Shown here: positions 22,360 to 59,575 of the stretch, piece after piece
How the letters are laid out: each line of letters begins with the position of its first letter
Position numbering within the stretch: position 1 is the first letter of the stretch
From: Podospora anserina
Taxonomy: Eukaryota
DNA: 64,000 bases
NCBI GenBank assembly: GCA_017654855.1
Contig: JAFMPO010000001.1
Span: 248,001 to 312,000, forward strand
Direction: 5' to 3'
Translations under genes and position numbers: made by a program
Notes under the pieces: model-generated
Told to the model about the DNA's origin: nothing
What the model saw: the letters and a program-made list of their open reading frames with translations, nothing else
The model's database searches: none

Positions 22360-22640
22360 GCTATCTTGTAAGACGTGTTGACCAAGGTGTATGTTAAGGC
22401 CTAGTATGTGAGGTGTTCTTTAAGGCCTGGGAATTTGTCTAGTGAAAGGACATTGAGCAACTTGTCAAGGTCATATTATGTTTTCGTATCTATTGACTAT
22501 TTTTTTAAAGCGTATTAATTATGTTTCGTGGCCTGTGGGCTATCTTTTAAGGCAATGATCATTATCTTGTAATGCCAGTTAACTATCTTTCAAGGCCCAT
22601 TGACTATTTTTAGAACGTACTGGCCATCTCTTCGGGCCTT
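22360..22640 (+). repeat. Degenerate 21-bp minisatellite array A
   Basis: Units resembling TTGACTATCTTNNAAGGCCTG, e.g. ttaactatctttcaaggccca. Confidence 0.75.
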
Positions 22641-22715
22641 TCAGGAGATAAAGAGGTGCATCTTCTTTTCACACAGTATTCTATTAGTTAGATAGGCGGC
22701 CAGTGCTGTAGGGCT

Positions 22716-25162
22716 TCACCTCTCATGAAAGAAAGTTCCAGCATCATCAAACCCAGCCCCAAACATATCAGGTCCAACCCCCATCGTCAGCTCTGAGCTG
22801 AAAAGGCCCGAATCCATCAGCTGCGCCACCCAGGCACCCGATGGCGAAAGGTTTACCAAGTCAGAAGTCCCAGATTGCCCCGTGCTATCAACCGCTTTCA
22901 GCATCTGGGAAAGCGCATCTCGGCAACGAGCGATAGTCTCATTTCCTCCGTCTAAGCCGTGCAATGTCTCGAGTGCGGTATCCATCATCTTTCTCAACTC
23001 TGCAGTGGATATTGCTGAGAGGATGGTGCTGTTCGGTAATGGCATCCTCTTGATGGAGATAACACCCAAGAGAGCCAAAGAGGCGTTGAAGGCTGAAAGG
23101 CACGTCAGTATAACGCCAAAGGTAGAAGCAACGGACCGGCCAGACATACTGTAATAGCAAGAGAACCACCAGGCCCCGAGGAGATTCTGATTCGTGGTTT
23201 CGGATGCCTTGAGGAGCTCTTTGCTGATGTGGAGCACATCTCCTGCTGTCTTGACCAGATCAGAAAGAATTGTTGCTCCACAGCTGTGAAGCCACCGGGA
23301 AGTGTGCTCGTGTGAAGATGACTCCGAGCCTGTTGTATCAAGGAACAGGTTGATGACGGGTCTCATCGCTAGTATACGTATCCCGAGGTAACGGAGAGAG
23401 AGAAGAACCCTGAGACGCGTGCTCTCCAACATCAGTGGAGCAACAGCGTCGATTGTATCGTGACAGGTCATTATCTTGAGGTTGGAAGGGAGCGTATCTT
23501 GCCATTGAGCCAATCCAAAGCAAACTTTTGTCGTTTGCTCAAGAATTTGGCTTGGTTCTGGATTCGGGTTTGAGCCAAGATTATTGTCGTAAAGGCGCTC
23601 AAGGATGTCACCCATCAGATGTGTTACTGACCTGGCTCTAATGTTAACAGACAAGTACTAAAGCTGAAGGAAGGAAAGGTCTCGCATTAAAGAGTCAATA
23701 TATGCTATACTTGATCTTGTCACACTGCTGGAGACGTTGCTGAATGCAATTCGGGCTCCCGGTTTGGGATTGACATGCGCCAGTGGTATGAGCGGCGGCC
23801 GGCCATATGTAACGCTCAGCCAACTGCCACGATGTTAGCTCACTGACAAAAAAAGACTTACATTGCCTGAGCCACGTACCGGTCATTCATGACACACCAA
23901 TACCATTGCCTTCTTCGAATCTCAGCGTCCAACGGAGAAAGACTGTGACATCCTGTGACGTGGAGTCCCAGTTGATACGAGCCCTTGACGGACAGGCTGT
24001 GGAATGTCCATGCAAGAGAGGAGTAACTGGTGCCTTCGAGATAGATCACCATCAACAGAAACAATTGGACTACGCAAAACGTGTGTAAGTAGGCTCGCCG
24101 CGTTGAAGATACGGGCGAAAGAAACCGTACCTAATTCCAGAGAGGGATTACCCAGCATGTATGGTTTTACCAACTCTAGTGCTCGCTGAAAGCACATGTC
24201 TGACAGTGCAGCTCGGTCTTGGGGTGGTGATCTGACACCGACCACATTGGAAGCTAGTGCGAAAACCATGTTGATAATCCCAAGCCAGGGTTTTGACAGC
24301 TTTTCTGGGCTCTCTGATTTGGCAATGAACCACATCGAACGAAATCTGTCTTCGTGAATACACGGCAGCATTAGATTGACGGTGTTGAAGTAGAGATGTA
24401 GGAGATGCTCAGACTGTTCCAGAGCTGGGAGGACATAGACATCCACAGCCCTCTTCTGCAAAGTGTTATTTCCTCTCATGATCGGCCGACTTGATACAAA
24501 TGTGCCTGAACGGGTTCGCCTAGCTTGGTGGCCCGAGGAACTGTCCCGAAAGCTGGTGGCCCCTCCTAGCGCACGCATGATGAAGCGGAGAAACGCAACA
24601 TTTGAAGACGGTCCTGGTAGGAAATGCTCAATCACCATGGCCGAGAACAGGACCTTTTATGGTTATTCTTACCAATGTACTCCTGTTCCGCTGAATCTTC
24701 CCGAAGTGACACAGCCCCCATTCCGTCCACAACGTCACCCTCATCTTCAATAAGACTCGTCCCCGGTGTGCTCGCATCGCATTGAAGACTTCGATCGTCC
24801 AGCCTACTCGCGGAGGGTGATGTCGCCTGAAATGTTTCGTTCTGTCTGCCCTTCTCCTGCAGTGCAGCAAGCTGTTGCTCCAATACACGGAGCCTCTCTT
24901 CTAGCTGGCTGACGTCTTTGTCCTGAGCGGGCTTGTAAGAAGGGTCGTCGTACTCGCAGACCAACCCCACATCACTACAGGTGGAGCAAGGAAGGCGACC
25001 GTCGCATCTAGACTTGCGAGTTCTGCATGTCTTGCAGGCAACTGAGATTCTGGTGCGTTTTCGTGTTTTGGGCTGGGCTGACTGTTCTGCTTCATCCGTG
25101 ACATTGAGATTACTGACTGGGGTAGTGAACCACGGTGGCTGCGTGAGGCCATTGTTGGCCAT
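22716..25162 (-). CDS. Zn(II)2Cys6 transcription factor with fungal-specific TF domain
   Basis: ACKTCRTRKSRCDGRLPCSTCSDVGLVC; YFNTVNLMLPCIH; QLGLH..EIRRRQWYWCVMNDR; multiple introns. Confidence 0.92.
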
Positions 25163-25604
25163 GATGCTGTGGGCGACGAGGTGAGGAAAGGTTCTTGATC
25201 CAATCAGAAGGACAGGATCAAAATGAGTAATGAGAAAGAGGAGATGTAAACAAGCTTTCCCCGTGGGGTTTGATGTTGCGGGGTACTTTGACTGCAAGCT
25301 CCATCGGCTCAACAGAAGGCATCCCTGCTCCACTGGTTTTCTCTCCAACCATGATCTCTAGTCGTTGTTTCTCTAACAGACCTATCTAAGATAACTTCGA
25401 AAGATCAATGTCCCAACTCGAGCAAGCCCATGCTCTAGACATGCGTCGATGTGGCAGTCTTGCTGCCTTCTGGATCTCGAGGTCAGGGGTAAAAGTGGGG
25501 CATTCAGGGGTAATGTTTTCCGAGCCACACTGCACCTCCATCCAGCCCAGCACATCTCAGACAGAGTAGCTGGTACAAATGAGCATATAACATAGCTCAG
25601 GATG

Positions 25605-25822
25605 CTTTTTAATATGTTGCAAGGCCTCTTAATGAGATCTGATGACTTCACAAGGCATCCTGACTATCTTTCAGGGCCTAGTGACTGCTTTTACGCCCTG
25701 GTGGTTGCTTTTTACAGCCTCTTAACTGCTTTTTCAAGACTTGTTGATTATATTATGAGGCCTGATAGTTTATCACTTGAGGTCTGTTGACTATTCTTTG
25801 ATGCGTGTTGAATATCTTTTAC
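25605..25822 (+). repeat. Degenerate 21-bp minisatellite array B
   Basis: ctgactatctttcagggccta, ttgattatattatgaggcctg, ttgactattctttgatgcgtg. Confidence 0.75.
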
Positions 25823-25993
25823 CTTATCCGCGGCATATTAGCATTATCTTGATTCACATGCAGTTATAGAAGCAGTTATGTCTTAACTTATTTTTGAGTA
25901 TCAATCTTTGTATCCAGAACATTCTATAGAGGATTCGCGAATCTATTTTACTACCTAGGCATTTTATAGGCTAAAAAGCATCATGTTTCCACA

Positions 25994-27617
25994 TCATGGT
26001 TTATCATTGTCTACCCAGTTCCCATGCAACCCTTGCCTCAACCGCACGGGCAACAAGATGACAGCTTGCGCTTTGGTAAAGTTCTTCGTGTCAAGCAAGT
26101 GTAGCTCACTCGACATCGTGGCGTAGTTGTTTACAAGCGCAAGCAAATACCCATCTCCTTCCTCACCAGATCCCCGACGGGGAATGAATACTGGCTCCTG
26201 AACCATGTGCGTTCGTCCAGGGAAATACACTTCCACCTTACGAGTTTGGAGGTCAAGATGTCCCAGCGAGTTATACAGAGGGTATCCCCCACCGAGCTGG
26301 TGGGCAATCCCTGGGAAGTCGGTCCCCAACGCCGGATTCAACATGTCGTAGAAGCAGTGCCTGTATGGTTGAGTGGCAAATCGGTCGTCGATTCGGTAAA
26401 ACTCCGAGTTGTCCTCTTGAAGCACCTCTGGGTCGGCAAGATGGAGGTTTGAAGACTTTGGATCAATCACAAAACGCTTCAACTGGGAGACAATTGAACT
26501 TGGCTCCGGGGCATTCCCCTGGGCATCCGGCCACCAAAAGAAGACGTTCTTGTCACTGAGCGCAATGTCCATGACGAGATTGCCCGATGAGTCCTCGAAG
26601 GCGTTGCTAACGTGGCCGGGGAATGAGTTGCGGTATTGATACCACTGACATGGATATTAGCGACGTCCCATAACTTTGGAGAAGAAGTTTGCCAGAGTCG
26701 CTCACCTTAACATCTTCCGGCTTCGCGCCTGTTCGAGGCAAAACGCCGACATAAAACGGTGTCTCGGGGCTCCACTGCCAGTGCTCGCCACCCTGCTTCA
26801 GCCTCTCGAGATCACAAACCTGCGGCATGATGGGGAAGAGCACAAAGTTTTCAGTCACAGCAAAGTCGTGAATCATTCCCACAACTGGCGCAACGAGCCA
26901 CACCACCTCGAGGAACTTGCCATCAGGAGCTACTCGGTAATAGCACACATCAGGCGTCCCATCTCCTTTGGCCTCATACCCAAAGCAAATCATCTCGCCC
27001 GTCTTGGGGTCGAACTTGGGATGGGCTGTGAACGTCAAACTGGGAAGCTGCCCATCAAAAGTGTGCAGGCCCAAGGTCTCGAGGGTTTCTGGGTCCAATG
27101 CGTACGGCGGGGCGTCTTCCTTGAGGGCGAGCAGCTTGCCGTTGAAGTGGATGATGTTGGTGTTGGCTGTGGTGCGGACTTTGAACTCTACCGCATCGGT
27201 GTACTTGTTGCGGTACTTTCCCAACAGGGCCCGCTTGGCCTCGCGTTCTCGTTTCAGCTTCTCAGTCTGGACATATTTTTGCTTGAAAGAGACTTTGCCG
27301 TCTTTGATCCGGAAAGCGCTGATGGAGCCATCTCCGTTGAACCACTATGGCGGATGATGAGCTTCTTGACCTCGGGCAAAATATGGAGCACTTACTGGGT
27401 CATCTTGGATGAAAGGAGGCAGCTGGGGATCTGGCATGACACGGTAAAACGTACCGTCAATGTCATCTGGAATTGCCCCATGGACCTCCAGGTGTGAAAC
27501 CTCGCCTTCAAGGCGGCATGGCTTCATAAACCCAGAGAACTGAGGGCGATCGGGAAAGTGAGTTGGTGCTTGTGCTGCCATGACTACGGTTGTCTGAGGC
27601 GAGGTGGAAGAGGTCAT
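25994..27617 (-). CDS. Lignostilbene/aromatic alkene cleavage dioxygenase (carotenoid oxygenase family)
   Basis: GTFYRVMPDP, FNGDG, GKYRNKYTD, TANTN; four Fe-ligand His motifs TAHPK, MIHDF, PGHVSN and GLHGNW; two introns. Confidence 0.93.
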
Positions 27618-27639
27618 CGTAGGAGATCTAAATACTTTC

Positions 27640-27830
27640 CCGTCTTGGACGTTACCCCGATCCGGGGAGACATGGAGGCTTGCTCCCCGTTCCCGGTTCT
27701 TCCCCGGATTTTATGCATTCGGATGTGTCGGGGGGGGGTGCTAGCAGATCTTGGCAACCTGGAAAGTGGGTTTCCCTGGAATCTGGGGCTCAAAATGGGT
27801 GGAGCTTGCCCGGATGTTCCCCGATCAAAC
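27640..27830. promoter_or_regulatory. Bidirectional promoter with CGG-N7-CCG sites
   Basis: CCCGGTTCTTCCCCG at 27692 and CCCGGATGTTCCCCG at 27809, with a degenerate copy near 27645. Confidence 0.55.
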
Positions 27831-27975
27831 ACACCTCAGACCAACAAAACTGTGCTGTGGTTATGCAGACGAGCCAAATATCAAGTACAAAAGAAATGGT
27901 CGCGATACCGCGGAAATCTTCGCTCATCATGTCGTTCCGGAATCTGTCTTACTCATTTTCCCCTCCACCGCCGTC

Positions 27976-29703
27976 ATGCCGCCAACAATTTCTTTGACGC
28001 CTGCCACGCTGAAAGCCTTTTTTGATGAAGTTGCCCTTCTTATCGGTGAGGACAATGTCTCACGAGATCACTCAAGTGGTGCCTTGACAGGTGTGGCAAC
28101 TTCCCTAGCGAGACGACATCTTCCATACTGACAAGAAGAACAGGAGCTCTGGGGCAAACCACATACGGCGATGCATTCTCAAAAGCCGACACAAATCTTC
28201 CAGCGGGTGCTGTGCGACCCGAAACCGTCCAGGAAGTTCAGGAAATTGTCAAGCTCGCTAACAAGCACCAGGTCTATCTTTGGACAGTATCAAGAGGCAA
28301 GAACCTTGGCTACGGTGGTACTGGACCCGTCGTCAAAGGGACCGTGGTGCTGGACCTGCATCGCATGACCCAGATTATCGAAATCAATGAGGAGTATGGC
28401 TATGCCATCGTGGAGCCTGGAGTATCATTTTTCGACCTCTATGAAGAGATCCAGAGGAGGGGACTGAAGCTTTGGCCTTCGGTTCCTGCGATCGGCTGGG
28501 GCTCCGTCGTGGGCAACACCCTCGACCGAGGATTTGGCTACACGCCCAATGGCGAGCATTCACAGTCTCAGTGCGGCATGGAGGTTGTGTTGCCAGATGG
28601 GACTCTCATTCGCACTGGCTCTGGAGCGATGTCCGATAACGCCACGTGGGCGCTGTACAAAGGGTAAGTCTTAACATTGCCTCGCTGTCCTCTTCGCCAT
28701 CAACGATACTGACACGACTCCTCACAGCGGCTTCGGCCCCAGTCTGGACGGCTTGTTCTATCAGTCAAACCTCGGAATTGTCACCAAGATTGGAATCCAC
28801 ATCACCCCTGCCCCCGAAGCCTACGCCACTGTCGAAGTCGATGTACCGCTCGAGTCAGACCTCATCCCCTTGGTCGGCACCCTCTCTGATCTCATGCGCC
28901 GCTCCATTATTCTCAACAGTCCCTCCATAGCCAACATCTTCCGCATCGCCCTCACCTCTGAGAAGCCCGAAGTCCTCAGTCAGATTGGTCCCTACATGAA
29001 GGCAGACTCGTATGTGCCCTACGACCTCCTCGAGAGGATTCGGGTTGAGGAGAGGTGGGGTTTCTGGCGGGCGTATTTCTCGCTCTACGGCTCAGTGGAA
29101 ATGCTTTCCGCGCTCAAAGCAACAGTAGAGCGTGCCTTCAGACAAGCCGTCCCCGGTGTGCAGTTCAAATATCGCGAATGGGCCGGATTGCCTGGTGCTG
29201 CCATCTCGGCCGCGGAGGATATCAAGACCGAGGTGGTTCCTCACAGCGGTATCCCAACGGTGGAACCTTTGGGGATTGTTGACTCGAGAGGTGAACGGGG
29301 CGGTGGGCATATCTGTTTCAGCCCGGTGATACCGCCTTCGGGCAGGGAGCTGTACGATTGGTACCTCGCGGCCAAGAAGAGGACCGCGGACGCCAAGTTT
29401 GACTTCTTTGCCGACTTTCATGTCTACCCTCGATATGTCATTGCTATTGATCTGGTAATTTACACGATGGGTGAGGAGCAGAGGCTGCATGAGCTGTACA
29501 AACAGTTGCTGCACGACGCGGGAGAGCAGAGGTTCATGGAGTATAGAACTCACGTGGGGTATATGGACACAGTCGCCTCGAAGCTCGATTTCAATGACTT
29601 CGCTTTTGGGAAGTTTGTCCAGACACTCAAGGATACGTTTGATCCAAACGGAGTACTTTCGCCGGGAAAGTCAGGAATCTGGGTGACGGGACAGAATATG
29701 TAG
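27976..29703 (+). CDS. Vanillyl-alcohol oxidase/PCMH (4-phenol oxidising) family flavoprotein
   Basis: SRGKNLGYGG, VEPGVSF, GNTLDRGFGYTP, CGMEVVL, QSNLGIVTK, EYRTH, DPNGVLSPGKSGIW; two introns. Confidence 0.92.
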
Positions 29704-29869
29704 ATGTCTTGTGAACTCTATCAAATACCTAGGTGGTAATAGCATTTCTCAGTATTTGGCACACTTACTCAATTCAAATCAAATGAAACCAAATAGGCCC
29801 TCAAATTTGACTTGTTTGATTTGCGTGATGCCTTGTTGTTGCGTACTGGGATCGGCGCTTTAGCGATGA

Positions 29870-30358: not shown

Positions 30359-30496
30359 AGGTCCTGCACTTCTTGAAGTAAGATGCTTGTTCTCCAGGAC
30401 CCTCTTAATTTTATCATCTTTTTATACACTTTTATTGCCAACTCCAACGTTGAGTAATAAATATAATAGGTATTAACTTTTAATTTATAAATATAA

Positions 30497-30720
30497 AAAA
30501 AAAGTTAATAGACGTTTAAAGATAGTTAATAGGCTTTAAAAAACTGTTATTAAGTGTTTAGAAATATTGATTGTACGTTCAAAGATAATTAATATACACT
30601 TAAAAATAAATAATATATATTTAAATATAACTAATATATATTTAAATATAACTAATATATATTTAATTATAACTAATATATATTTAAATATAACTAATAT
30701 ATATTTAAAATACTATTAAA
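30497..30720 (-). repeat. 21-bp minisatellite array C (reverse orientation, AT-converted)
   Basis: aaagatagttaataggcttta, then about 4 near-perfect TATATATTTAAATATAACTAA units. Confidence 0.8.
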
Positions 30721-30749: not shown

Positions 30750-31167
30750 TGTCACAGACCAACCATATAGCAAGGCAGAGTGGGGACTGCAGCAGGCCGT
30801 GGTGACCAGTCAAGTAACAGATAACAGCGGGGCTGCAGGATAGTGGGGCGCTCACCTCTTGGCAGAGGTGAGCCGGCTCGCCAGGAGCGCTGGGTGAGCG
30901 AGGTGAGCCAGGATGGATCACCAGGAGCGCTTGGTGATCGAGGTGATCCAGGTACGGAGGTACCTGGAGGATTGAGGTCTATATATACGGAGGAACTGGC
31001 CGGTGTAGATAGACAGTTCCGCAGTATGCAATTCAGCTTGTATTCACGGTATCTAGTGTTTACATTGAGACTTCTTGTTGTGCACTGTTTAGCTGCACCG
31101 AACCAATTGTCAGAAGTTACCTTCAACCAGTATCCCTTTCAGAGGTTCTGTACAGGGGTTCGTCACA
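30750..31167 (+). mobile_element. Solo LTR, crapaud-like, 418 bp
   Basis: TGTCACA...GTCACA termini, perfect 5-bp TSD TTATA on both sides, internal TATATATA box, little RIP. Confidence 0.93.
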
Positions 31168-31254
31168 TTATAACTTTCTTTTATTATACTAGTATTTTTC
31201 TCCTAAGTTTATAAGTACTTAACTTGTAGTTTCTATACCTGGTCCATAAACTAA

Positions 31255-32365: not shown

Positions 32366-34249
32366 CGGGACCAATTTCTCACCTTCTTTTCTCGAGATTA
32401 GTTCGCGCCGTGATGTGCATTTTCGCTTGCGGTTCTTCTATCCACTGTTTGTGTCCGTTCGAAGCATAAGCCGGTTCTGTACGCTTATCATGTGTAGTTT
32501 GGGGCCAGTTGAAGGATTCAATGAGAACCAGACATGGCTAAATTCAAGAGGGTGGTCTCAGCTGTGTAATAAGAGGCCTTCTGCTTTGAGCAAGACCTGC
32601 GAGACTATTGATTTTGGAGACACACTCCATGGTAGTATCAAAAGCTAGCTGTCTTGACGGAGATTTCTCGGTTTTAAGTAGTGTGTGGATGAATCGGAAG
32701 GTCTGATTCGTCAATGGGTTTTGGTTGACATTTGCGGGCACCATCTCGTGTGGATTGGTGGAAAGAGACAGAGGAGTGTGAGGGGAAGCTGCAGTCAATA
32801 CCAGACTTGGACAGCCAGTGACTGCTGTGTAGGTGTCTGGAAATTTTGACGAGGTTGTCCATCATTTGCCGGTTCTCGGGTTCAAGACCATGTGAGGGTA
32901 AATGATGATGATTTCGGCAGGCCAAGCCGTTCATCTACCCCTCCTTCATGCACAGCATGGGCGGTGTCCAGTGGCTTTGCATCCTGTCGAAGTGCCAGGT
33001 GACAAAGCTATCATCATCGATACGAACGCCTGGACTGTTCCTCCAATCCAGCAGAGCTCTTTGCTGGCTACCTGAGCTTGGCTCTGTGGATATAAGACGG
33101 ACTGTAGTCAAACGTTGGCATGTGACCTTCCCTTGATGGCTGGGCAACGGTACCTAAGTACGTCTGTAGCATGAGATGTATTAGGTACCTATTCTTGGAT
33201 CAACTCGCTGATTATCACGCCTCGTTGATGGTTCGTCGAGTTTACCCCGCCCAGATGCTTTCATTGAAGTCCCCCCGCAAGCACCAGACAGCATATCGTC
33301 TGAAGGTTATTGTAAGAAAATCGATTGGCATACGCTTTTCAAGGCATTACATAGTTATTTGGTTGTCTTTAACCGGTCATTGACAGTCTCTGAAGGCGCT
33401 GGTTTGCCAACTGCGGTGCCCACTTTTCAGTCCCCAGCGTGCATGCTGTGGAACAACGGGGATATTTAGATGCAGCATCCTAATTGCTTGCCCGCTCCAC
33501 GTCCCCTTCAAGCTCAGGGCGGTCCTGACGCCACCCCGTTTCAAGGAACCCCAACCCAGTGTGGAGCAGTGATCAAGTGGCGTCTGGAGCTAAGGATTAC
33601 GCTAATGTAGGTCAAGTTGGCGCTAAAGTCCGGGGAATGTGGAGAAGGTCAACGTCACCTTGATCAACGTCTTGAACGGTGAACAGACAGGGCCAGGTTT
33701 GATGACTGAACCAGCGTCGTGTCCGATTCCAGTCAATTACAAACCGTGTGCAATAGATCGGATAAAGATGACCTGTCAAGAGACGGACGATGCAGGGCTC
33801 GTCGGCCATCCCATGACATCTCGAACTGGTAGGAGATCCCGGTGTCCAGTTGTGTGTCCCGACACGTTTCACAGCTTCTGATAACGTCCTGTTATGATTT
33901 ATCTGCAGGTGGGATGCCCTTGATGCAGTCAAAACCACCAAATTAGGCGAGTTCTGGTCTCCTGGGTGGCCGACCACAGCTGCTGGTTGAGTGAAAGGCA
34001 TGCCTACCGTAGTACGAATACACGTTCGGAAACTCTGAGTGCGAGATGGCTGTACAGCCTGTCTTCCAGGCTTTATCACCCGTCCAAGATAGCAACTTGA
34101 CTATGCAACTTGAAAGGCGCGGGCTCCAATCACATTTCACCGATCGTCTCCAACATGCAGCATCGTCTTGGACTTCAACCCTCTCTCATCCTGCAAAAGC
34201 ACCTGAACTCTCGTCATAAACAAAATAATCAAGAGGGAAACATAAAATC

Positions 34250-34400
34250 AGGGCGTTAAAAGATAGTAACTACGCCTCTTGACCATCTTCAAAGACCTCG
34301 AGGAAATAGTTCAGGTGTGCGAAGTATCTTCAAAGGCATATGGACTATCTTTAATGCTCTTCAGCTATCTTTTAGCACCCATTGACCTTCTTTCTGTGCG
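34250..34400 (+). repeat. Degenerate 21-bp minisatellite array D
   Basis: ttgaccatcttcaaagacctc, tggactatctttaatgctctt, cagctatcttttagcaccca. Confidence 0.65.
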
Positions 34401-34823
34401 TTTGCCAAGTATCTCGCCTATCGTCTGATTATCATCGCCACCTGGGTGAGGGGTTCCCAAATCCAAATATGCATCCAAGCAACTTTAGTATCAGCAGGAC
34501 TCGGCCTGGAGCAAGGATCATGCAGGACGATGTACCCTCGGTCCTGAGGCATTGACCACTTGTAGTTGCAGGATGGGAGATTTGGGCGTGTCAGCCAGGT
34601 ATTGAGGAGAGGGGAAAATGCAATCCCCGGGCGCCTTGATTGCCAAAAGGGGTCATAGAAGGCGGGGGTCGTTCGGCAGGTACCAAAGCACTAGCTCTGC
34701 TTCACGGGAACATAAAGAGACGGTGGTTTTCCCTCCAGTTTGTGCTTTTCATGAAGAGTTCGTCGAGCAGTCTTCCGGGACTGGGACCAAGATCATCCTC
34801 GACTGGATACTGGAAACGCCAAC

Positions 34824-37477
34824 ATGTCGCCTCTACCTGAGGAGTTTGACATTATTGTGTGTGGAGGGGGCTCGACGGGATGTGTTGTGGCGGGAAGGCA
34901 AGTCCTCTTCTTTCTCGTGCTTCTTTTTGCCGTTTTCTTTTTTTTTCCCCTCTTTATTTCTTCTTTTGATTCTGTCTCTTCTGTGGAACCAAAAGAACAT
35001 CCTACCCACAGAGTAGGCCGGGTGGTATATGTCTCTACATTATCGTTTCGTTTTCTGAGATGCTCCCGCTCCCTTTACTTTTAGTTTACACTGTCTGCCG
35101 ATAACTAATACTGTTGTCTAGATTGGCGAATCTCGACCACAATCTCAAGGTGTTGCTGATCGAGGCAGGGGAAAACAACCTCAACAATCCCTGGGTGTTC
35201 AGGCCAGGAATCTTCCCGCGGAACATGAAGTTGGACTCCAAAACGGCTACTTTCTATGAGTCTAACCCTTCACCATCACTCTCTGGTAGAGGTGCCATCG
35301 TTCCGGCAGCAAATATACTTGGAGGTGGCAGCTCTATCAACTTTATGGTAAGATAGTCTATCCAACTCCATGATGGGAGTGCTTCGCTGACGCTGTGTAC
35401 CTACCTTAGATGTACACGAGAGCATCTGCCTCCGACTATGATGACTTCCAAGCCAAAGGGTGGTCAGCCGAGGAACTCCTCCCTTTCATGAAGAAGTTCG
35501 AGACCTACCAGCGCGCCTCCCACAATCGTGAGACACACGGCTTTGAGGGACCAATCAAGGTCTCTTTTGGAAACTACCAGTATCCGATCAAGGACGACTT
35601 TCTTCGCGCTGCGGAGTCTCAAGGTATCCCAATCGTTGATGATCTTCAAGACCTGAAGACTGGTCATGGCGCTGAACAGTGGCTCAAGTGGATCAATCGT
35701 GATGTAAGTCTGCTGTCAGCGTCGTGGTCCCAACTGTTTATGATTGACATGGGGATCCTTGCAGACTGGCCGTCGAAGTGATGCCGCCCACGCCTACATC
35801 CACGCCACCCGTGCGGTCCACTCGAACCTGTACCTTGCTTGCAATACCAAGGTTGACAAGGTCATCATCGAGAACGGGAGGGCTGTGGCAGTTCAGACTG
35901 TTCCGACCAAGCCGTTGGGCAACGTGAGTACTTCAAGCGGTCATCGACCAGTTCCGAAGCTAACCCCCCGAGCAGAGCCCAGGCACTCGTATCTTCAAGG
36001 CGCGTAAGCAGATCGTGGTGTCAGGCGGAACCATGAGTTCACCCTTGATCCTCCAGCGCTCCGGTATTGGCGACCCTGCCAAGCTCCGCGCCGCCGGCGT
36101 CAAGCCGATTGTCGATCTTCCTGGCGTTGGTCTTAATTTCCAAGATCATTACTTGACCTTTAGTCTCTATCGAGCCAAACCCGGAGTGGAGAGTTTTGAT
36201 GATTTTGCCCGTGGTGATCCTGCTACTCAGAAGCGTACGCTTGTTCCCGAGACGTCGATGCTCAGTGATGACCCGGCTGACATAAAATCCAGGTGTCTTT
36301 GAGGAATGGAACCTCAAGGGAACCGGCCCCTTGGCAACCAATGGCATCGAAGCAGGGGTGAAAATCAGGCCCACGCTTGAGGAATTGAAGGAGTTTGAGT
36401 CGTGGCCAACACCGAACTTCAAGGAGGGCTGGGAGTCGTACTTCAAGAACAAACCCGACAAGCCCGTCATGCACTATTCGGTCATCGCTGGCTGGTTTGG
36501 CGACCACATGCTGGTGCCTCCTGGGAATTATTTCACAATGTCGGTGACCATTTCACTCTCGGAATCACACAGCCTCATGAGTCCAGTCTAACATGCATAC
36601 CTTTTAGGTTCCACTTCCTTGAGTATCCCTTCAGTCGTGGAAAGACTCACATCACGTCTCCCGATCCGTACGCCGTCCCAGACTTTGATGCCGGATTCAT
36701 GAATGACCCTCGCGATATGGGCAAGTCCGAATCTCCAGCTCCATCTGAAGACGGATATGCTAACATAACCGCCATGGAATAGTACCTATGGTCTGGGGCT
36801 ACATTAAGTCTCGCGAGACCGCCAGACGTATGGATGCCTACGCAGGCGAGTGCCAGAGTATGCATCCCGTCTTTGACTACGACTCGGAAGCTCGCGCTCA
36901 TGACCTCAACTTGGCCGGTGAGTCCAAAACCTTGAACCATCCCAGGCAAGAAACTGACACCCGATGACCAGACACAAACGCTTACGCGCTTCCTGGCAAC
37001 ATCACTGCCGGTATCCAACACGGCAGCTGGAGCGTCCCGCTCCCAGAGCCCGAAGACAAGCTCACACCGGAGAACATCAAACGCATCGTCTCCAGCAACC
37101 GCAAGGACAAGAGAAGGGAGCTCAAGTATACCAAAAAGGACATCCAAGCCATCGAAGAATGGGTCAAGCGCCACGTGGAGACCACCTGGCACTGCCTGGG
37201 CACGTGCTCCATGGCTCCCAGGGAGGGGAACAGCATCGTGAAGCATGGCGTCCTCGATGAACGCCTCAACGTCCACGGTGTCAAGGGCCTCAAAGTAGCA
37301 GACCTTTCCATCGCACCAGACAACGTGGGAGCGAATACCTTCACAGTGGCCCTTACAATTGGAGAGAAAGCGGCGGCTCTCGTGGCAGAGGATCTCGGAT
37401 ACTCTGGTGAGGCTCTGGAGATGAAGGTGCCGGATTATCACGCACCGGGCGAGAACCGGCTTGCCAGTCGACTTTGA
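34824..37477 (+). CDS. AOX1: Alcohol (methanol) oxidase, GMC AA3_3, peroxisomal
   Basis: EEFDIIVCGGGSTGCVVAGRLANLD, GGGSSINFMMYTRASASDYDD, ETTWHCLGT, DNVGANT, C-terminal SRL (PTS1); many introns. Confidence 0.93.
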
Positions 37478-37959
37478 GCGAGGATCGTGCACTGGCCTCT
37501 TCAGAAAAGCGTAAAAGGCAACAGGACGCAAGCTGGAAAGCAATGGAGCGGAAGGGAGGGAGGGAGGTGGAAGAAGGGGCCCAGACATGAATCTCAAGAA
37601 AAGTGGATCCAATCCAGGGGCTTGATAGGGGCAACACAACTCGGACACTGGGGACACTCCTTTGAGTTACGTATTCTTTTGACGGTCTTCGTGGGAAGCT
37701 TGGGTATGAGTTTCTATTTGTTTTATGGATATCAAACTTACTTGAATCAATACCTGAATGGTTACGGGATATCTTTAGCACCCCGGCCGTTCTCAGTACC
37801 GTAGGGGTCAATGGCAACCACACACACGTGCGTTTATGGACCTGTCCTTCTCATTAGACACTCGGTAGCCAGGAATACATGACAAGATCAACCACTCAGC
37901 GGCATCAAATGACATTTAATATGCCGAAAAGACCAGAAAACAAGCCCTTAAATGCAACT

Positions 37960-38165
37960 CCAAGACCTATCAACCATCTTAAGAGGCCTGTTGATATCTT
38001 AAAGGGCCTATTAACTATCTCAAGAGGGCTGCTTACTATCTTAAAAGACCTGTTGACTATCCCAAAAGGCCTGTTTACTATTTAACGAGGCCTATTGACC
38101 GTATTCCAATGCACATTGATTACCTAGCTTGCAACACATATTGAGTATCTGGCAATGCATCTAGA
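37960..38165 (+). repeat. 21-bp minisatellite array E (clearest copy)
   Basis: Consecutive 21-mers ttaactatctcaagagggctg/cttactatcttaaaagacctg/ttgactatcccaaaaggcctg/tttactatttaacgaggccta. Confidence 0.88.
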
Positions 38166-51975: not shown

Positions 51976-53310
51976 TTACCACAACCCATCCATCTCTGCC
52001 ATTGCCGCCTCATCATCGTCAAAGCTGGTGTCTTTTTTGGCCCCAGCCTCCTTCTGGGTTTCAGGAACAGGCTTAGAAGACGCTCCCTCTGCCTCTGCTT
52101 CTGCCATCAGAGCGTCAAGATCGTCCTCCTCATCATTAACCTTCGTAGGCTCCGTAGACTTGGGCGCGCTCGGTGCCTTCGTAGGTGGCTGGGCCTCAAC
52201 CTCGGCCATAAGCGCATCCAAATCGTCATCATCAAAGTCATCCACTTCTTTCCTTTGCGGGGCAGATGGTTTGGAATTGCCATCGCCAAGTATGCTCTTG
52301 GTTGACTGGTTCGGTCTAGTGGACAATGTTTCCGCTTCTGCCTCGGCCATCAGAGCGTCCAGATCGTCATCCTCTGGTATGTTATTCGCCTGTGGTTTTG
52401 GTGGTGCCGCTGCCGTGCTGTTACTTGTCCCATTCCCAAATATGCTCTCCGACCCGTTCCCAAATATGCTTCTTGGTGGCTGCCCAGAGTTAGCCTCTGC
52501 CTCTGCCATCAGCGCATCCAAATCATCATCGTCCGGAACGCCTTCACCCCTAGCCCCCTTGGTCGCAGCTCTTGGCGTGGCATTGTAGATGTCATCGTCT
52601 CCAAACAAATCATCCCCATCGGGTGTCTTCGGTCGTTCCTTGGCCTTATCGAACACAGGCGCAATCCTTCCTGTATCTTTTGGTGTCTTATCATGTTCGT
52701 AAATCGGAAACGGGTCTACGTCGTTCGGACCCTCCTCTCCCTCGCCTCTGGGTTTCAACTCATCAATCCATTTCATCCTGGCGTTCCGCAACGAGGTCTT
52801 GTGTCCAGCCTTTTCCACCATTGCCAATGCGTCAAGGAAGCTGGCTTTGGGAAAGAGTTCGTCAAGCCATTCCTGGTAGAACGATAACATTCGGGCAGCG
52901 TCGGAAAATTCGTGGCCTTTGCCTTTGAGCTTTAGTCTGGATTGGGCGTTTTTTCGGAGCCATGGGATGCCTTTGTCTGATAGTAGTCTAGTCATGATAT
53001 TAGCATACATACCAGATCAGGCGGGGGCTAGGCGAAGTGTATACCGGGCATCGTCAAGCTTGACTCTGGGAACACGAGCTTTCTTCTTGTCGACTTCTGT
53101 TTCTAACCCGAGAACATCGGTCCCTTTTCTCTTTTTACTACTGGCGTCGGTCTTCTTGTCATCGGTCTTCTTGGATTTGTCGCCTTTCGGGGAACCGAAC
53201 GGGTCTTCCTCGTCAAAGTCGCTCCATCCTTCTAGAAAACTATCGACAAAAGCACCGCTGTCCTTTTTGTTGCCATTGGTGACTTTGCTTGGACCTGCTG
53301 CGGCGGGCAT
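51976..53310 (-). CDS. CSM3: Replication fork protection subunit Csm3/Swi3 (Tipin)
   Basis: [54 protein letters not shown]; intron 53044-52988. Confidence 0.93.
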
Positions 53311-53398
53311 TGTGAGAATACTTCGTGGTCGACTATCGCAACTTTTGTTGCTTCAACTGGTGTTGTTGGGTTTGGGGGTAGACAAGACCATTTAAAAG

Positions 53399-53435
53399 AG
53401 ACGCGACTTTGAGATGGTTGGCGCGTCGCGCGTCA
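53399..53435. promoter_or_regulatory. MCB-like (ACGCG) cluster in the divergent CSM3/NUXM promoter
   Basis: GACGCGA at 53400 and CGCGTCGCGCGTC at 53422, about 100 bp upstream of CSM3. Confidence 0.55.
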
Positions 53436-53671
53436 AGCTGTGTAAGTGGTTGTGGCTTGCCCCGCAGCGCACAAGCCACATTGAATTCCCGCCAAGACTT
53501 GTTGACATGATATTTGCCTCAGGCATCAATCCACTGCTGGAGCTTCAACGGCCTGGGTCCAGCAAGCTTCAAGGAACGAGCCAATCCAGACGACCTCAAT
53601 TCGCTTGCCTGCGCCCGCCCTGCTCGACGACGACGACGACGGAAATCGCCGGCCAGGCCCAGTCAGTCAAA

Positions 53672-54519
53672 ATGTCGACCACTCCCGGAAACACGTATAC
53701 CATCAGCAAGCAGATCAAGACTGAGTACCCAGTGAGTTTTGCGGTGCCGTGAAACCCAATTGAAGGGGACCAAGCTAACTGGGGTTTGCACACAGCTCAT
53801 CGATAATGATCCGTATGGTCCCCCCCTTACTAGATGTCAAAGTTCTCGAGCACGGAGATGGACAGGAATTAACATCGATTGGTAACAATCCAGGCACTTC
53901 AAGCGTGTAATTCGGTACGCCCGGCCGTCCGATTACGTCCACGGCATCGTCGCTGCCGCCGCCGGCCCCAGTCTTCTCTACGCCATGGAGAGATTTGCTC
54001 CCTCATATGTCGGAAAGGGTGGTGTCGCCCAGACCATGCGGTTGGGTGGTGCCATGGGGTTGTGTGGTGGTTTCATCTACTTCTACCAGCGGTCTATTCG
54101 TACGTCATCGCTCCATCACAGCATATCGAGGCAACAGTCGGGCTTCGGGCCGGGTTTAGAAGAATTCGGATAATGTGGGAGGGTGCAGGCGGTACTAGAG
54201 ACAGGAACTGACGGCTCTGATAGTGCGCTTCTACGGTATGAGCGAAAACGCCCGGGAAGTCCAGATGGACATGCGCGAGATGGTCGACAAGGTCAAGCGC
54301 GGCGAGCCTATCTACGGCGAAAGTCAGCTTACTCCCGCCATGCAGGGTGTTGCCGCCCGCCAGTCTAGATATTCCGCTCTCTTCATGGCTGTGCTCCCCT
54401 GGTTCAACTTTGTCAACCACAGCCAGCACGGTGTTGACACCGCCAAGTATTACAGACAAGCCGAGAGGGAGCTGGAGGCTGAGCGTCTTGCGCGGGAGGG
54501 TGGGAACCCTAGCCAGTAA
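53672..54519 (+). CDS. NADH:ubiquinone oxidoreductase 20.9/21 kDa subunit (NUXM)
   Basis: TEYP/LIDNDP/HFKRVIRYARPSDY, RFYGMSENARE, QSRYSALF, PWFNFVNHSQHGVDTAKYY; includes a 17-nt microexon. Confidence 0.92.
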
Positions 54520-55003
54520 AAGGAAAAGGAACGAAAAGAACGATTGCATGTGCGGGGAGGGGTGCTGGACTGCGGGTGCCAGGTTGTATATACCAATGCT
54601 AGAAGGCTGGCCAACAGACATTTTTTTTGATGAACACATTGCTAAGTATCTATCTTGGGTTGATGTGCTCACCGGCTTCCAGCTCTTACACCGAATATTA
54701 GCGCTCAAACGACGTTGGATTGGATGTTTCTATGGGCTTGAGGGGTAGAGTTAGATCAATGCGTGTATACTTTAGCCCTACTACGCAACACGGCAGCGGG
54801 TATCTCATGTACGTTTGAATGGTTTACTTGGAGTTAAAGATGATTTTGACGTAGCTGACAATGGTCATACCCAGATAGTTACTCATATATACGAATGCTA
54901 TGCATACAAATCTCGCACTCACCACCACGCCACCCGTGCCCACCACCTTGATTCAACTATCCTCAATCTACCCTCCGGACCTCCCAATCAAGCCACCAGT
55001 ATT

Positions 55004-56154
55004 TTAAGCGCACTGCGAGTAGTAAGGAGGCGAAACAGCCTTGCAAGATCCGCTCTGTCGAAGGGTCAGCATTGATGCCACTTTGGAAAAAGGGTTCACT
55101 CATAACAACTTACAGCGCAGTTCGTGCATCCAGTATACCCGTTACCGCCACACTGCCCATACATGGCAACACTGCAACCGGAGTTGCCGCCGCCAGCATC
55201 ACTACCACCGCCAGCAGCAGGAGAAGAACCACCGCCTCCTGGAGCAATCGCGGAAGGAGAAGAGCCAACCTTGCAGGTTGACGCACACCCAGTGCAAGCC
55301 CCACCAGGAGTTCTAGTCTCACCACCAGAATAAACCGCCGGTCCAGGGGCGGTGTAAGAAGTAAGCGCAGCGTGGATGTTCACCTGCCCTTCACTGGCAC
55401 CATAGGCACCGGGGAGCCTCACCGTCGCGGGGCTAGCGTTGCCACCACCGGAGACGGTGATCTGGTAGCAGGTCATGTAAAACTGACCGCCACCGCTTGG
55501 ACCAGCAGCGTGGAGAGCTAGCGACTCGGCACGGAGGAGGTAGTCGCCCGAGGGGATGTCAGCGGGGATCTTGACGTCCATCTTGCCGCAGCAGGCGTTG
55601 AGATCCTTGCTGCCCCAGTTGTCATCGTCACCAACGCGGCCGCCAGCCTTTTTGGACCACGAGTTGGAAAGGATCTTGAACCAGCCGGTGGAGGTGCCGT
55701 CGGCGGTGGAGGCGTCTGGGACCTTGGAGAGGTAGACCTGGACGGGGCCGTAGTGGGCGCCGCCGATGGCTTCTTGAGAGCAGGACCGGTCACCAGTTTG
55801 CTGTGGGTAGGGTTTCAGTGACGGTGCGGAAGGAAACCATGGGGTAGAGGCATACCTGGTGCATCTCGACAGTCACGGTGCCGCCGGCGCGAACAGGGCA
55901 CTTGCCAGCGACGCCACGAGTACCGGCATTGCACACAAAGTCACGGCCTCCGACGTTGGTGACGGGCGAGTTGGAAGGGGGGAGACGAGCGCAGGAGGAG
56001 CCGTGCTGAAAAGGTCAGTCACAGGTCCAGGTCAACACCAGGAGAGAAGACTTATATAATCGGTACCGTCAACCCAGAGTTGCTGGAAGGTGGCATGGGC
56101 AGCAATCTCTTTGGCGGCCAGTGCCGTCAAGGCAGCAAAGAATGTCGACTTCAT
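55004..56154 (-). CDS. AA9 LPMO with CBM1
   Basis: Signal peptide then HATFQQLW, AHYGP, YLLRAESLALH, QFYMTCYQ; CBM1 YGQCGGNGYTGCTNC..YYSQC. Confidence 0.94.
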
Positions 56155-57503
56155 TTTGAACTGAAACCCGGATGGAGTCAAGATGGAAGAATGGAAGCAA
56201 GCCACTGACGAAGCAACGGGCAGAGAGAGGGGGAGGGGAGGACAACCGCTTTTTTTTCGGTGATATATACCTCTCACTGTTTGGCTGCTTCCACTCTACC
56301 CCAGATGTAGGGGGTGGCTGGCCAGGTTCTCACTCGCGCCCACTCGTCATACTCGACCGTTGGGCTGTCAAAGCTATGCATGCATACGGGGGCGTTCCAA
56401 CCGAGCTCACTTACCGGCCCTCGATTCCTTGACTTGTCAAATCTCACCCTGTCCAAGCCAGGACAGGAGGCTCAATCAGGAGTATACTACCGTGATCACT
56501 CTTTGGTCGAGTGGCTGCATTTGCCGAAGGCAACATGTCTGCACCCCAGCCGGGGTCCCCAGACTGGTGTGGGTTGGTGTGTGGTGGAACACGCTCTATC
56601 CGCTCGAGAAATCTGGGGTATAGTGTTCCACGGCATGATTGAGGTTTAATATGGACCGAACGGGCACGCGGACGAGCAGCGACAAATGAGGTTTGTGAGC
56701 GCATATTGGAGAGGTGCTGCGGGATCAATATCAACAGAGTATTTACCCGGGCCTTCTCACGGCAGCGCTGGGCCCGCAGCACCCGGCTTTCCGCAATTGG
56801 TGCGGACACAACAGACAGAAGTGGACTGGATGATCCGTTCCGGTTATTTTGGTTGGGTTGTTTATTGAGGGTGGTGAATCTGCTGTAGAGCGGCTACGAT
56901 GCCAACCAAGTCGGTGCATGGTATCTAACTGGTGAGAGAGTCGCACATCAAAAATCAGGAACAACCCCTCGGACGGTTTTCATCCTCTGTGATAGTCAAA
57001 GCCCGCACCTACACGGGTCTCAAGCAGGGGCATTTCAAGATCTGAATTGTCTGTATAGCAACCATTGTGACCGGGTTTTCATCATGCTGCGATTCGTTTC
57101 GGGGGTCAGCCTGCATCGGCCTTATCCCGGAACTTACTGCCACACAAATGAATCTTCCATGGGCTCCTAATCTCTCACCACTTTCCCGACTGGCATGACT
57201 TGTCTGAATTCCTGATGATGGTCAAACACAGCCCTTGGCAGAAGCGGGTGGCCTTCTAAGACCTCGCTGAAGGATCTCAGGCAATCTAAGAAAATACATG
57301 GGAATGGTGGGATTATATGGCCTGGAGTACAGCACGGCTCGTCATTCAAATCCCGAGAGCTCTTTACGTCATAGGACTGCTACGGTCTGACTTATTTGTG
57401 TGTAAAGGCTTGGTGAGCCGTGGCATCTGGTAACATCCTGCGAAAATCATTCAATCTAGTGAGTCGGAAGTTTCGATCTTGACATGAGCAACACGCCCGT
57501 CTA

Positions 57504-58278
57504 TCAAACTGCGTCTCCAGATGCCCAAGCTCTCAACTCCACATCCATCTCCTTGCTATAATCTCCAAACCTTGCCCACAGACCATGAATCCAATCGTTG
57601 TACCTCTTTGGCCAGCTTCGCCCTTCAAACATGGCCTTTGTATACTCCCAATATTCACGGATTGAATCCTTCCATTTCCCAATCAATTATCCCAGTGACC
57701 ATCCACCCTCTGGTCCCGTCAGGCCGTTTGAACTGATCCACTAGAATGTTTCTCGGGTTCAGATCTGCGTTCGTGAACACAATTTCATGACCTTGTCGAC
57801 CTGGGTCGTCAGAGCACCTCATGAGCTTGCTGAAGTCTGCTTCGTCACGAAACGGCCCCAACGGTTTCCCACCACGAAGTCGCATGTCAGCAATGGAACC
57901 CCCGAGGGTGTTTCATATGGCCATGGTCTCGCTGGCGGTAGTCGGGATCCCGCAAATTTATGACATGTAATTTTCAAGTTGCCCGATAATCTGCCTCGCG
58001 TCCCTGTTGGATGACGCATTGAGGGATTGAACAAGTTGAAAGCCCGGAAGCCCCGTCATGAGAATGAATGCAACTTGGCGGCCGCCCGGTCGATAGACGA
58101 TATCGAGTGGACGCGGGACTGGCACATCAGTGTGCTGTTGAACCAATCTGAGAGCCTCTGCCTCATTTCGAATACGGTCTAGCTCATCGACCAAGTTTGA
58201 CTCTTTAAGATAAAGGCCAAAAGGTAAGCGGGTGACACTGGCTGATTGTATGGGGTAAATGCCAAATCGAAGTAACAT
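57504..58278 (-). pseudogene. APH/choline-kinase-like phosphotransferase pseudogene
   Basis: RLPFGLYLK, NEAEAL, VPVPRPLD, GPF, FTNADLNPRNILV, IIDWE and YWEYTKA spread over several ORFs, with a TAA at 57958 and frameshifts. Confidence 0.85.
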
Positions 58279-59403
58279 TTATGTTTATTCAGGGTGCCTG
58301 AATTTGTGGGCTGAGAATCACGGGAATTGCAGCCATATTGGCTACCTTGTGTTGAAAATAACGCTTGGAACTAAATTCCTTTGTATCTTGGATACTCCCG
58401 AGTCGTCTCTGGGCTTGATACGTACTGGTAACAAAAAATTAACAAAGGAATTACGAACGAGAGATCTACGGCTTTGAGTTTGTCGAGGCTACACATGAAC
58501 ACATTTGAAACTACCAGCATCAATCTCTTCCCTGGGAAGATTTCTCACATCTATGAGGAGTGTTGACTAGAACTAGCTTGTGTCAAAACGACTCATCATA
58601 CCTTGTGCCTATTGTCTGCACAATGCTAGGTAGCAGTCCTCTTAACAAAGCAAAAGTGCTACAGACTGGGTCAACATAACGTCAAGATGTGACTCATTAC
58701 AATATCCACAGTTGAGAAGCTGCATGGCGCAAGAGAAGCGCGCCAGGCTCATAACCCGGAGGTCACTTGATCGAAACAAGTTGCAGCTAAACTTCTTCAT
58801 TCCCCCCCCCCTCCCCCCCTTTATTTTGGGGTTCATCCCATTCTTTGTTTTAAGCTTCATGTCCTTGAAGTCAAGCGTATGTTTTGTCTCATCAAGCCCT
58901 GGTATACCTCTCGGTAGGAATGCTTAAGCAGAAAGAATCATCACCAACAGCCAGAGAGTATAACAAGTCATGAGGAGGATTTCCCGAATAAGGTCCTAAA
59001 CCAACTTCGGTCCTGCAACAGGTTTCCGTGGAACGTACAATGCAGCAACGGACCTCTGCTATCCAAGGATGCCACTCGTGGTGATGACTTTCTCGTCGGC
59101 GGATACACCACAGGCAAACAACAGCTAACCGCTATCAATCATCGTGTGACTATGGGTAGAGATCAAGAAGACGACCCCACGTTCTCGCCGTCTGATGGAG
59201 CTGCCCACCTCAAACTCAACCAGGTAATATATGCTACCGACGTGCAGAAGATGAGAAGAGAGCTGCAATTCACAACGATCGGACCCCAAGATCTGATATG
59301 TTTCGTCGACAACTTCGACATGCAAATGTTGACTCGAGAGTGTGAGGCCATTGCGTCTGCACAAGGCTCCAGAGATAGTCACTAGACAGGAAAACATACC
59401 CAC

Positions 59404-59575
59404 AAGGCGTTCAAAGATGGTCATCAGGCGTTAAAGGATTGTGGTTAGGCGCGCAAGGACAGTCGATAGGCCTAGAAATATAGTTGATAGGCATTCAAAT
59501 GTGCTTGATAGGCCTTCAATAACGGCCAAGGGGTTCCAACTGATAGTCGACAGACATTCAAAAATTGCTGATACA
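59404..59575 (-). repeat. 21-bp minisatellite array F (reverse orientation)
   Basis: aaggacagtcgataggcctag/aaatatagttgataggcattc/aaatgtgcttgataggccttc. Confidence 0.8.

Follow-up and report, generated by a model that had tools for sequence, protein, structure and literature searches.

The six arrays of a degenerate 21-bp repeat found in the window, i.e., the whole stretch of 64,000 nucleotides of Podospora anserina DNA that was analysed, are very probably interior remnants of old MITEs, non-autonomous cut-and-paste transposons that belong to discodeles and mantella, two catalogued families, and most likely they are not a new structural DNA signal. The earlier note on this DNA had left room for a cryptic mobile repeat, and it had stated that a match between the arrays and the inside of a known transposable element family would count against its reading. 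Such a match was found, since the unit forms the interior of the annotated discodeles and mantella elements; the mobile-repeat option is supported by elements with TIRs and TSDs that carry the unit inside. The established value of this result lies in repeat annotation: it adds old copies that the annotation of the two MITE families lacks, a further subfamily of CAC type, TSD lengths that hint at superfamilies, and an internal minisatellite shared between families.

Arrays and relics in the window

The features of the window are listed below; gene limits are those of the published gene table, with coordinates shifted by 7,832,529.

21510..21754, no strand given: seventh relic, a MITE of CAC type (subfamily C) that keeps both TIRs but whose interior array has decayed past detection, without TSD
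22472..22640, strand +: array A22 with 8 units, preceded by looser unit-like sequence from about 22357 on, TIR not significant, 3' of the Zn2Cys6 gene
22716..25162, strand -: Zn2Cys6 transcription-factor gene (Pfam Zn_clus)
25551..25923, strand +: A25 element of 373 bp with a decayed CAC-type TIR at each end, without TSD
25994..27617, strand -: stilbene/carotenoid-cleavage dioxygenase gene (Pfam RPE65; best PDB match carotenoid oxygenase 5u8x, E=1.3e-111)
27976..29703, strand +: vanillyl-alcohol-oxidase-like gene (E=7e-44)
30467..30697, strand -: array A30, 11 units, 13% GC, TIR not significant
30754..31168, no strand given: crapaud solo LTR beside A30, repeat match to L022 (table row 7863283-7863697)
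34210..34427, strand +: A34 element of 218 bp whose CAC-type TIR is significant on the left and weak on the right, aligns to subfamily C
34825..37478, strand +: alcohol oxidase (GMC family) gene (E=5e-57; spliced contigs)
37970..38115, strand +: array A38 with 7 units and a weak continuation as far as about 38204, TIR not significant
59362..59571, strand -: array A59 with 10 units, all spaced by exactly 21 bp, TIR not significant, 3' of the HET-ankyrin gene
59698..61914, strand -: HET-ankyrin gene (Pfam HET and Ank)

All six arrays reported in the earlier note were recovered. Scored with a matrix built from 174 units of loci outside the window, they reach 50-105, while no score in 20 shuffles exceeds 16. 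A matrix seeded on A38 alone recovers the other five; their 3-unit scores are 23.7-37.6, and the highest value in 30 local shuffles is 20.3. Tandem Repeats Finder by itself detects just three of the six. As had been described, the arrays occur in both orientations (four on the forward strand and two, at 30.5 and 59.4 kb, on the reverse strand), and all six are housed in gene gaps, none being genic. Of 42 steps between units, 33 measure exactly 21 or 42 bp and nine deviate from these values, and the 48 units show 66% identity to their own consensus. The list of six had overlooked the relic at 21510-21754, which begins 12 bp past the stop of the gene at 19838-21498 and matches the whole-element HMM with E=7.8e-5 (model positions 1-230) and the TIR HMM with E=3.9e-4, its array score being 4.

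The statement that the arrays lack TIRs has to be abandoned. The 21.5-kb relic has both ends, and A25 keeps decayed CAC-type TIRs on both sides (at 25551, p=0.004, and at 25923, p=0.002) of an inner array of 7-8 units at 25639-25828 (+). A34, some 400 bp before the start of the alcohol oxidase gene, keeps one (left TIR at 34210, p=0.003; right, p=0.22, or 0.027 under an earlier model), and its array at 34279-34402 (+) consists of five units plus an inverted unit near 34250. The absence of TSDs stands, none surviving at any window copy (the flanking 5-mers of A25, A34, and the 21.5-kb relic do not match). A30 lies about 60 bp from the crapaud solo LTR, where contig depth is high and loose ends occur at about 30750 and 31167.

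A22, A30, A38, and A59 show no end at p<0.05 and no TSD. Since these four keep neither TIR, we infer from the identity of their unit that they are probably MITE relics, and no family assignment is possible for them, because a generic tandem model does at least as well on them as every family model. A30 has a RIP-like C>T/G>A excess (CG>TA rate of 0.44 vs 0.06 for TA>CG) and holds four near-identical AT-rich units, which may derive from recent slippage. A38 is located in the convergent gap between the alcohol oxidase gene and a bZIP gene.

Five of the window relics are present, essentially unchanged, in one other sample. No orthologous site lacking the insertion turned up in the data, all of which come from a single species. 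In contigs from three runs guessed to be RNA, A30 is uncovered, and the contigs of the dioxygenase stop at 25921-25941, before A25; neither observation bears on expression. A contig joint between 22612 and 34325, one side of which has 25 bases, was read as a contig of another MITE copy.

Anatomy of the copies elsewhere in the genome

The 21-bp unit is spread over eight contigs, with 55 exact core matches, and thus it is not restricted to the oxidative gene cluster. Based on the 4-5 unselected arrays that ~597 kb contain, the genome is estimated to have a total of about 240-300. Two scans of metagenome contigs with two-unit patterns yielded no matches.

Intact copies outside the window consist of a TIR, a short subterminal stretch, a 21-bp array with a variable number of units, and a second TIR, with the TSD outside; at family level they combine TIRs and a TSD with the short, non-coding, multicopy character of MITEs. 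An array scoring at least 20 lies on the inner side of 48 of 56 TIR-pattern matches, some of which are the two ends of one element, and on the outer side of one. After removal of duplicates there are 55 TIR pairs (38 CAC-type and 17 GAG-type; two within the window), with lengths of 130-505 bp. An exact 5-bp TSD accompanies 20 of the 38 CAC-type pairs, compared with a fraction of 0.007 for mismatched flanks, so that 18 of the 38 lack it genome-wide. For the GAG-type pairs, the 8-bp TSD is exact in 5/17 and within one mismatch in 9/17, the corresponding fractions for mismatched flanks being 0.000 and 0.004.

Picking arrays by their unit, and not by their ends, also leads to these elements. Among 32 arrays outside the window, both TIRs were found in 19, one in six, and none in seven, two of which have a borderline TIR (p=0.054). 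This count leaves out L001 (the window itself), the duplicates L008, L017, L024, and L034, and L013, where no array was called; the weak end calls at the left of L002 and the right of L134 are probably misassigned. The decay series includes truncated examples (L095, L100, and L103). By eye, over ~0.4-0.8 kb, the lone TIRs of L093, L094, L095, L100, and L103 resemble truncated MITEs.

Correspondence with discodeles and mantella

Of the sites predicted with the help of the published MITE table of P. anserina (Carlier et al., 2021, Table S3; PMC8105982), 7/7 contained the expected family. Family A corresponds to discodeles at 4/4 sites (192 bp vs 192 bp for L044, and 236 vs 237 bp for L010) and family B to mantella at 3/3 sites (370 vs 372 bp for L081, and 324 vs 323 bp for L069), the names being based on positions and lengths and not on a library consensus. 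In the supplement of PMC10787394, discodeles amounts to 28.7-32.7 kb and mantella to 13.5-14.2 kb, near-constant in the four of seven species seen. At the two sites found of altiphrynoides, the third annotated MITE, the array is absent.

The likeness of the window to discodeles resides in the related CAC-type ends of A25, A34, and the 21.5-kb relic. However, the published table lists none of the window copies, having no MITE row between 7,694,767 and 8,186,535, and the ends of these copies resemble those of subfamily C, whose member L143 (2648-2865) is likewise unannotated. The likeness to mantella is the unit itself, carried by family B in all 17 TIR pairs, but mantella has GAGAG ends and an AT-rich 8-bp TSD, and no mantella-type TIR was found at any window array. 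In line with the MITE origin, the consensus unit of the window and those of families A, B, and C are alike at 19-20 of 21 positions. A literature search with the Podospora MITE names found no papers, the short-motif matches listed were unrelated, and no description of the 21-bp repeat appeared among the papers listed by further searches.

It is an oddity that families as different in appearance as discodeles and mantella carry the same repeat. In addition, L012, a mantella-type element, coincides with a 106-bp discodeles row, a cross-annotation that arises because the internal minisatellite is common to both families.

Proposed origin and decay

We propose that transposases supplied in trans, and probably lost since, would have spread these MITEs before the Podospora species separated, while slippage or unequal exchange would have altered the length of the arrays. 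In the active elements the unit would most likely have served as a repeated protein-binding site, and it most likely passed between MITE lineages by capture, through nested insertion or template switching. Once transposition ended, the copies would have decayed in such a way that the TSD and the TIRs became unrecognisable first and the redundant array could still be detected, and decayed copies would have remained chiefly in intergenic gaps. The window would then contain older copies: two with visible CAC-type ends, one with ends but an unreadable array, and four bare arrays.

Period, crowding, and chromatin

The earlier note had argued for a structural cis-element because the period seemed better conserved than the sequence. 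Indels amount to 0.005-0.010 events per base in the arrays, counts that are lower bounds because the chain finder favours 21-bp steps, and to 0.008 in the non-array ends of the MITEs when these are pooled (23 events over 2866 bases). With about 0.01 indels per base in both, the period does not stand out from the MITE ends, and neither this rate nor the chromatin of annotated copies supports the structural option. The units of well-preserved MITEs are already 23-25% divergent, and identity to the consensus is 66% in the window units vs 75-77% in families A, B, and C.

The crowding of arrays around the oxidative genes looks real. Six arrays scoring at least 20 occur in 64 kb vs none in the flanking 228 kb, and thus random insertion at the mean rate does not account for them. 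The probability of six or more arrays in 64 kb is 6e-6 to 2e-5, although about one such window per genome would be expected if the background rate stood at its upper 95% bound. An island of five genes, rich in H3K27me3 and poor in H3K4me3 (K27 17-33, K4 5-8) and bordered by genes with K4 values of 71 and 58, has five arrays and the 21.5-kb relic inside it or at its edge. Each window array has two to five HGATAR words, which we take to be GATA-factor binding words.

These observations would fit a MITE origin followed by co-option, in which copies such as A34, upstream of the alcohol oxidase gene, or A38, at the border of the H3K27me3 island, were kept as regulatory or boundary elements, and PMC5950925 provides a precedent for binding sites spread by MITEs. 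We consider this unlikely. A consistent chromatin signature, which the earlier note had looked to, does not appear at the copies: 14 of 66 annotated copies have a K27 peak, no enrichment over the 18% genome coverage (K9 in six, K4 in none), and the larger K27 block of about 42 kb just upstream contains no array scoring at least 20. Furthermore, the window copies are more decayed, and they accumulate indels as the MITE ends do. If the clustered copies did regulate genes for the oxidation of aromatic compounds and alcohols, the significance of the arrays would be larger.

It is quite improbable that the host possessed the 21-bp array earlier, as a minisatellite or independent chromosomal element, that two unrelated MITE lineages captured it separately, and that the bare arrays never formed part of a MITE. 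Two end types with different TSD classes (5 and 8 bp) do carry one unit, and a significant TIR is absent from 7/32 arrays outside the window and 4/6 within it. Nevertheless, the series from two TIRs to none is continuous, including the two borderline cases among the seven end-less arrays, the bare arrays match the MITE interiors in size range, and no dispersal route other than transposons was found. By eye, unit-like words appear to run into the inner TIRs of both families.

A relic of heptad-repeat coding sequence deserves practically no credence: 21 bp equal seven codons and one consensus frame is open, but stops are frequent, the 9/42 spacings off 21 or 42 bp shift the frame, and the TIR/TSD anatomy, with intact copies of 130-440 bp, refutes it.

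Superfamily hints

The ends of the MITEs were compared with known superfamilies. Families A and C have CAC ends and 5-bp GC-rich TSDs (62% GC), as do elements of the Transib/CMCT clade (PMC1131882 and PMC12730594); a 5-bp TSD is produced by hAT5 elements too. In 2005, fungal Transib was on record from soybean rust only. Family B, with a TSD of 8 bp (once 10 bp), falls within the 8-11 bp range given for Mutator-like elements in PMC6446971, and 8 bp is also the hAT length.

Profile searches of the genome found no partner transposase with the same TIRs for families A, B, or C. RAG1, Transposase_21, Plavaka, and KDZ profiles gave no matches, with uninformative controls (none over the cut-off for RAG1, Transposase_21, and Plavaka). 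Of three MULE domain matches, one lies in an element that has other TIRs of its own, and the family B TIR was found at none of these loci (10 kb examined) and at neither of two hAT loci (only 3 kb, with 1.5 kb of flank per side). A Transib-like transposase as the CAC/5-bp partner in an ascomycete would, if true, give the finding larger significance.

A more far-reaching idea, which we hold to be a long shot, is that the unit is a portable protein-binding module of two helical turns adopted by two unrelated transposon lineages, one Transib/CMCT-like, little reported in ascomycetes, and the other MULE- or hAT-like. Some copies would have outlived their TIRs through co-option by the host, serving to regulate or delimit the H3K27me3 island in which the genes for the stilbene dioxygenase, the vanillyl-alcohol oxidase, and the alcohol oxidase lie.

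MITEs with tandem interiors are known from DTC84 of Donax trunculus (PMC3879986). It shares with the Podospora elements a centre made of core repeats that vary in copy number, a palindrome close to where units join, and flanks that behave as a cassette. Its sequence, TSD (AA), and host differ from those of the Podospora arrays, where one unit serves two end types.

Recovery of the 21-bp arrays

The earlier note had reported six 21-bp arrays, named here by their window kb (A22, A25, A30, A34, A38, and A59), and matrix scoring against shuffled sequence recovered all of them at the reported positions. A seed matrix from the 38-kb array alone found the remaining five, all above 30/30 local shuffles. 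With a matrix of 174 units taken from non-window loci only, the six arrays scored 69, 50, 105, 52, 84, and 82, and the highest score of the same matrix in 20 shuffles was 16. Together, they contain 48 units that share 66% identity with the consensus, spaced exactly 21 or 42 bp in 33 of 42 cases. Both orientations do occur, with four arrays on + and two on -. The following features accompany them:

21510-21754: CAC-type element overlooked in the first reading (21.5-kb relic), both ends present, array unreadable
22716-29703 and 34825-37478: Zn2Cys6 factor, stilbene/carotenoid-cleavage dioxygenase (stilbene-type), divergent vanillyl-alcohol-oxidase-like gene, and then alcohol oxidase, beside arrays
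HET-ankyrin gene, beside an array

The group running from the Zn2Cys6 factor to the alcohol oxidase resembles a cluster for aromatic catabolism; it has low wild-type expression in the published table, and three runs guessed to be RNA show it spliced. A lag-21 periodicity at 5806-5986 comes from other short repeats and does not match the 21-bp unit.

The arrays are probably the interior of MITEs

The window corresponds to G000:C2:248001-312000 of a 35.96-Mb assembly in 9 contigs. The repeat occurs throughout the genome: an 18-letter core pattern had 55 exact matches in this assembly, spread over 8 contigs, and the reversed pattern, used as control, had none. When the arrays were masked, the locus flanks still aligned to one another, including inverted matches either side of one array. 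Loci were then chosen by terminal motifs alone (30/32 and 26/26 matches fetched), and 48 of the 56 matches, which include some paired ends of single elements, had an array scoring ≥20 on their inner side; one match had such an array on its outer side.

De-duplication left 38 CAC-ended pairs of 130-505 bp (families A and C), two of them inside the window, and 17 GAGAG-ended pairs of 254-439 bp (family B). Of the CAC-type pairs, 20/38 are flanked by an exact 5-bp target-site duplication (TSD) and 27/38 by one with at most one mismatch (GC 62%), the proportions in mismatched flanks being 0.007 and 0.044. In the GAG type the TSD is 8 bp long, exact in 5/17 and with at most one mismatch in 9/17 (GC 19%; control 0.000 and 0.004). 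An array lies inside the terminal inverted repeat (TIR) pair in 32/38 and 17/17 elements, respectively, and these elements are MITEs. A cryptic mobile repeat, one of the options proposed earlier, is supported by TIR pairs, TSDs, and named families: the repeat family is real and very probably represents the inner part of MITEs that are already known.

Two discodeles-type TIR pairs enclose a foreign interior without array, L040 1501-1749 (249 bp, exact 5-bp TSD) and L053/L099 8909-9413 (505 bp), and may represent captured sequence or derivatives of a parent element that arose by deletion. L004 1364-1649 carries back-to-back arrays in opposite orientations, with locally expanded 22-23-bp unit variants.

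Families A and B correspond to named elements

The MITEs discodeles, mantella, and altiphrynoides are annotated in Table S3 of Carlier et al. 2021 (PMC8105982), whose MITE rows agree in spacing and length with the loci already found by motif. Of seven sites predicted from these rows, family A was found at 4/4 discodeles and family B at 3/3 mantella; two altiphrynoides sites hold a different element without the 21-bp array. By position and length, families A and B are the already named discodeles and mantella. The altiphrynoides copies (L136 5544-5945, L137 9143-9582) have TIRs starting GAGA, as in mantella, and internal duplications. L143 holds an annotated discodeles copy (4725 onward) and, ~1.9 kb away, a subfamily-C MITE (2648-2865) that is missing from the annotation and has an exact 5-bp TSD.

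The PMC10787394 supplement lists 28.7-32.7 kb of discodeles and 13.5-14.2 kb of mantella per genome in each of four species, and this near-equal abundance suggests old, fixed copies. A description of the internal repeat may already exist in the repeat table of Espagne et al. 2008 (PMC2441463); the available text of the bioRxiv Enterprise preprint deals, as to repeats, only with construction of a repeat library. The literature searched on the repeat gave no account of one unit common to discodeles and mantella, and here one 21-bp unit occurs across two TSD classes.

Tandem-array MITEs (PMC3879986), binding sites spread by MITEs (PMC5950925), and degenerate MITEs in fungi (PMC3227409) have precedents in the cited texts. 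With their CAC ends and GC-rich 5-bp TSD, families A and C resemble Transib or the wider CMCT clade, although hAT5 likewise produces 5-bp TSDs (PMC1131882, PMC12730594); the 8-bp class of family B is compatible with MULE or hAT (PMC6446971). Neither class can be assigned to a superfamily, since no partner transposase was found with the domain profiles searched (MULE, hAT, RAG1, Transposase_21, Plavaka, and KDZ). The 3.2-kb Mutator-like element at L116 2958-6170 (G000:C1), probably dendrobates, has perfect 47-bp TIR arms holding a ~21-22-bp tandem duplication, unrelated in sequence to the array unit.

The window copies are probably decayed relics

The copies in the window probably add new members, all decayed, to known MITEs. 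None of the MITE rows of the Carlier table (PMC8105982) falls within the window interval, placed on its chromosome 1 at offset 7,832,529 by LTR fragments and gene starts. By TIR models trained on other loci, 19 of 32 non-window arrays chosen by unit alone have both TIRs, 6 have one, and 7 have none. The window arrays had been described as lacking TIRs and TSDs. Under these models, the first statement fails for A25 (both ends, p=0.004 and 0.002) and A34 (one end, p=0.003; second end, p=0.22) and stands for A22, A30, A38, and A59, whose flanks gave no significant end; the absence of TSDs holds for every window copy. Since no family model fits these four bare arrays better than a generic tandem model does, we infer their putative MITE origin from unit identity (the unit consensuses have 19-20/21 positions in common) and the decay series.

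A30 adjoins a crapaud solo LTR and has a RIP-like substitution spectrum. In one other sample, X13, two long contigs span five relics and differ by 4 bases and 1 gap over ~17 kb; they span A30 in part only. Among the runs guessed to be RNA, X17 has contigs over A38 and the greater part of A34, and X18 has one that reaches over the left part of the 21.5-kb relic. Between this relic and A22 lies a weak unit-like stretch (21938-22025, - strand, E ~0.1); if real, a single 1.2-kb convergent gap holds three relics. LTR-like fragments are scattered at 6573-6649, 8923-9008, 10192-10586, and 30754-31168, those at 6573, 10192-10586, and 30754 coinciding with crapaud rows of the published table.

Period, clustering, and chromatin

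The proposal that the period is conserved better than the sequence was not upheld. Arrays accumulate 0.005 (family A), 0.007 (family B), and 0.010 (window) indel events per base, similar to four non-array end segments (0 to 0.014; pooled 0.008), and already in well-preserved MITEs the units are 23-25% off their own consensus vs 10-16% for the ends. Most of the contrast thus goes back to master arrays that were already divergent, together with the usual scarcity of indels. The 21-bp phase may have had a role while the elements were active.

A general chromatin element, as had also been suggested, finds no support in the published annotation, where a K27 peak lies on 14/66 annotated discodeles and mantella copies vs 18% of the genome. 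Unselected DNA (~597 kb) contains 4-5 arrays, and the 228 kb flanking the window have none scoring ≥20. Six arrays in 64 kb give P = 6e-6 to 2e-5, which becomes 0.003-0.012 when 560 windows are considered. The local crowding is probably real, but it is not secure, because a background rate at its upper 95% bound would yield about one window of this kind.

Five arrays and the 21.5-kb relic lie inside an H3K27me3 island of five genes or at its edge. The larger K27 block upstream is free of arrays, which likewise speaks against a general chromatin role. Taking column identity from the header order of the published table, coverage of the island is 17-33 for H3K27me3 (third column) and 5-8 for H3K4me3 (first column), the bracketing genes having H3K4me3 values of 71 and 58. 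As candidate causes of the cluster, we favor local hopping or insertion tolerance in silent intergenic gaps.
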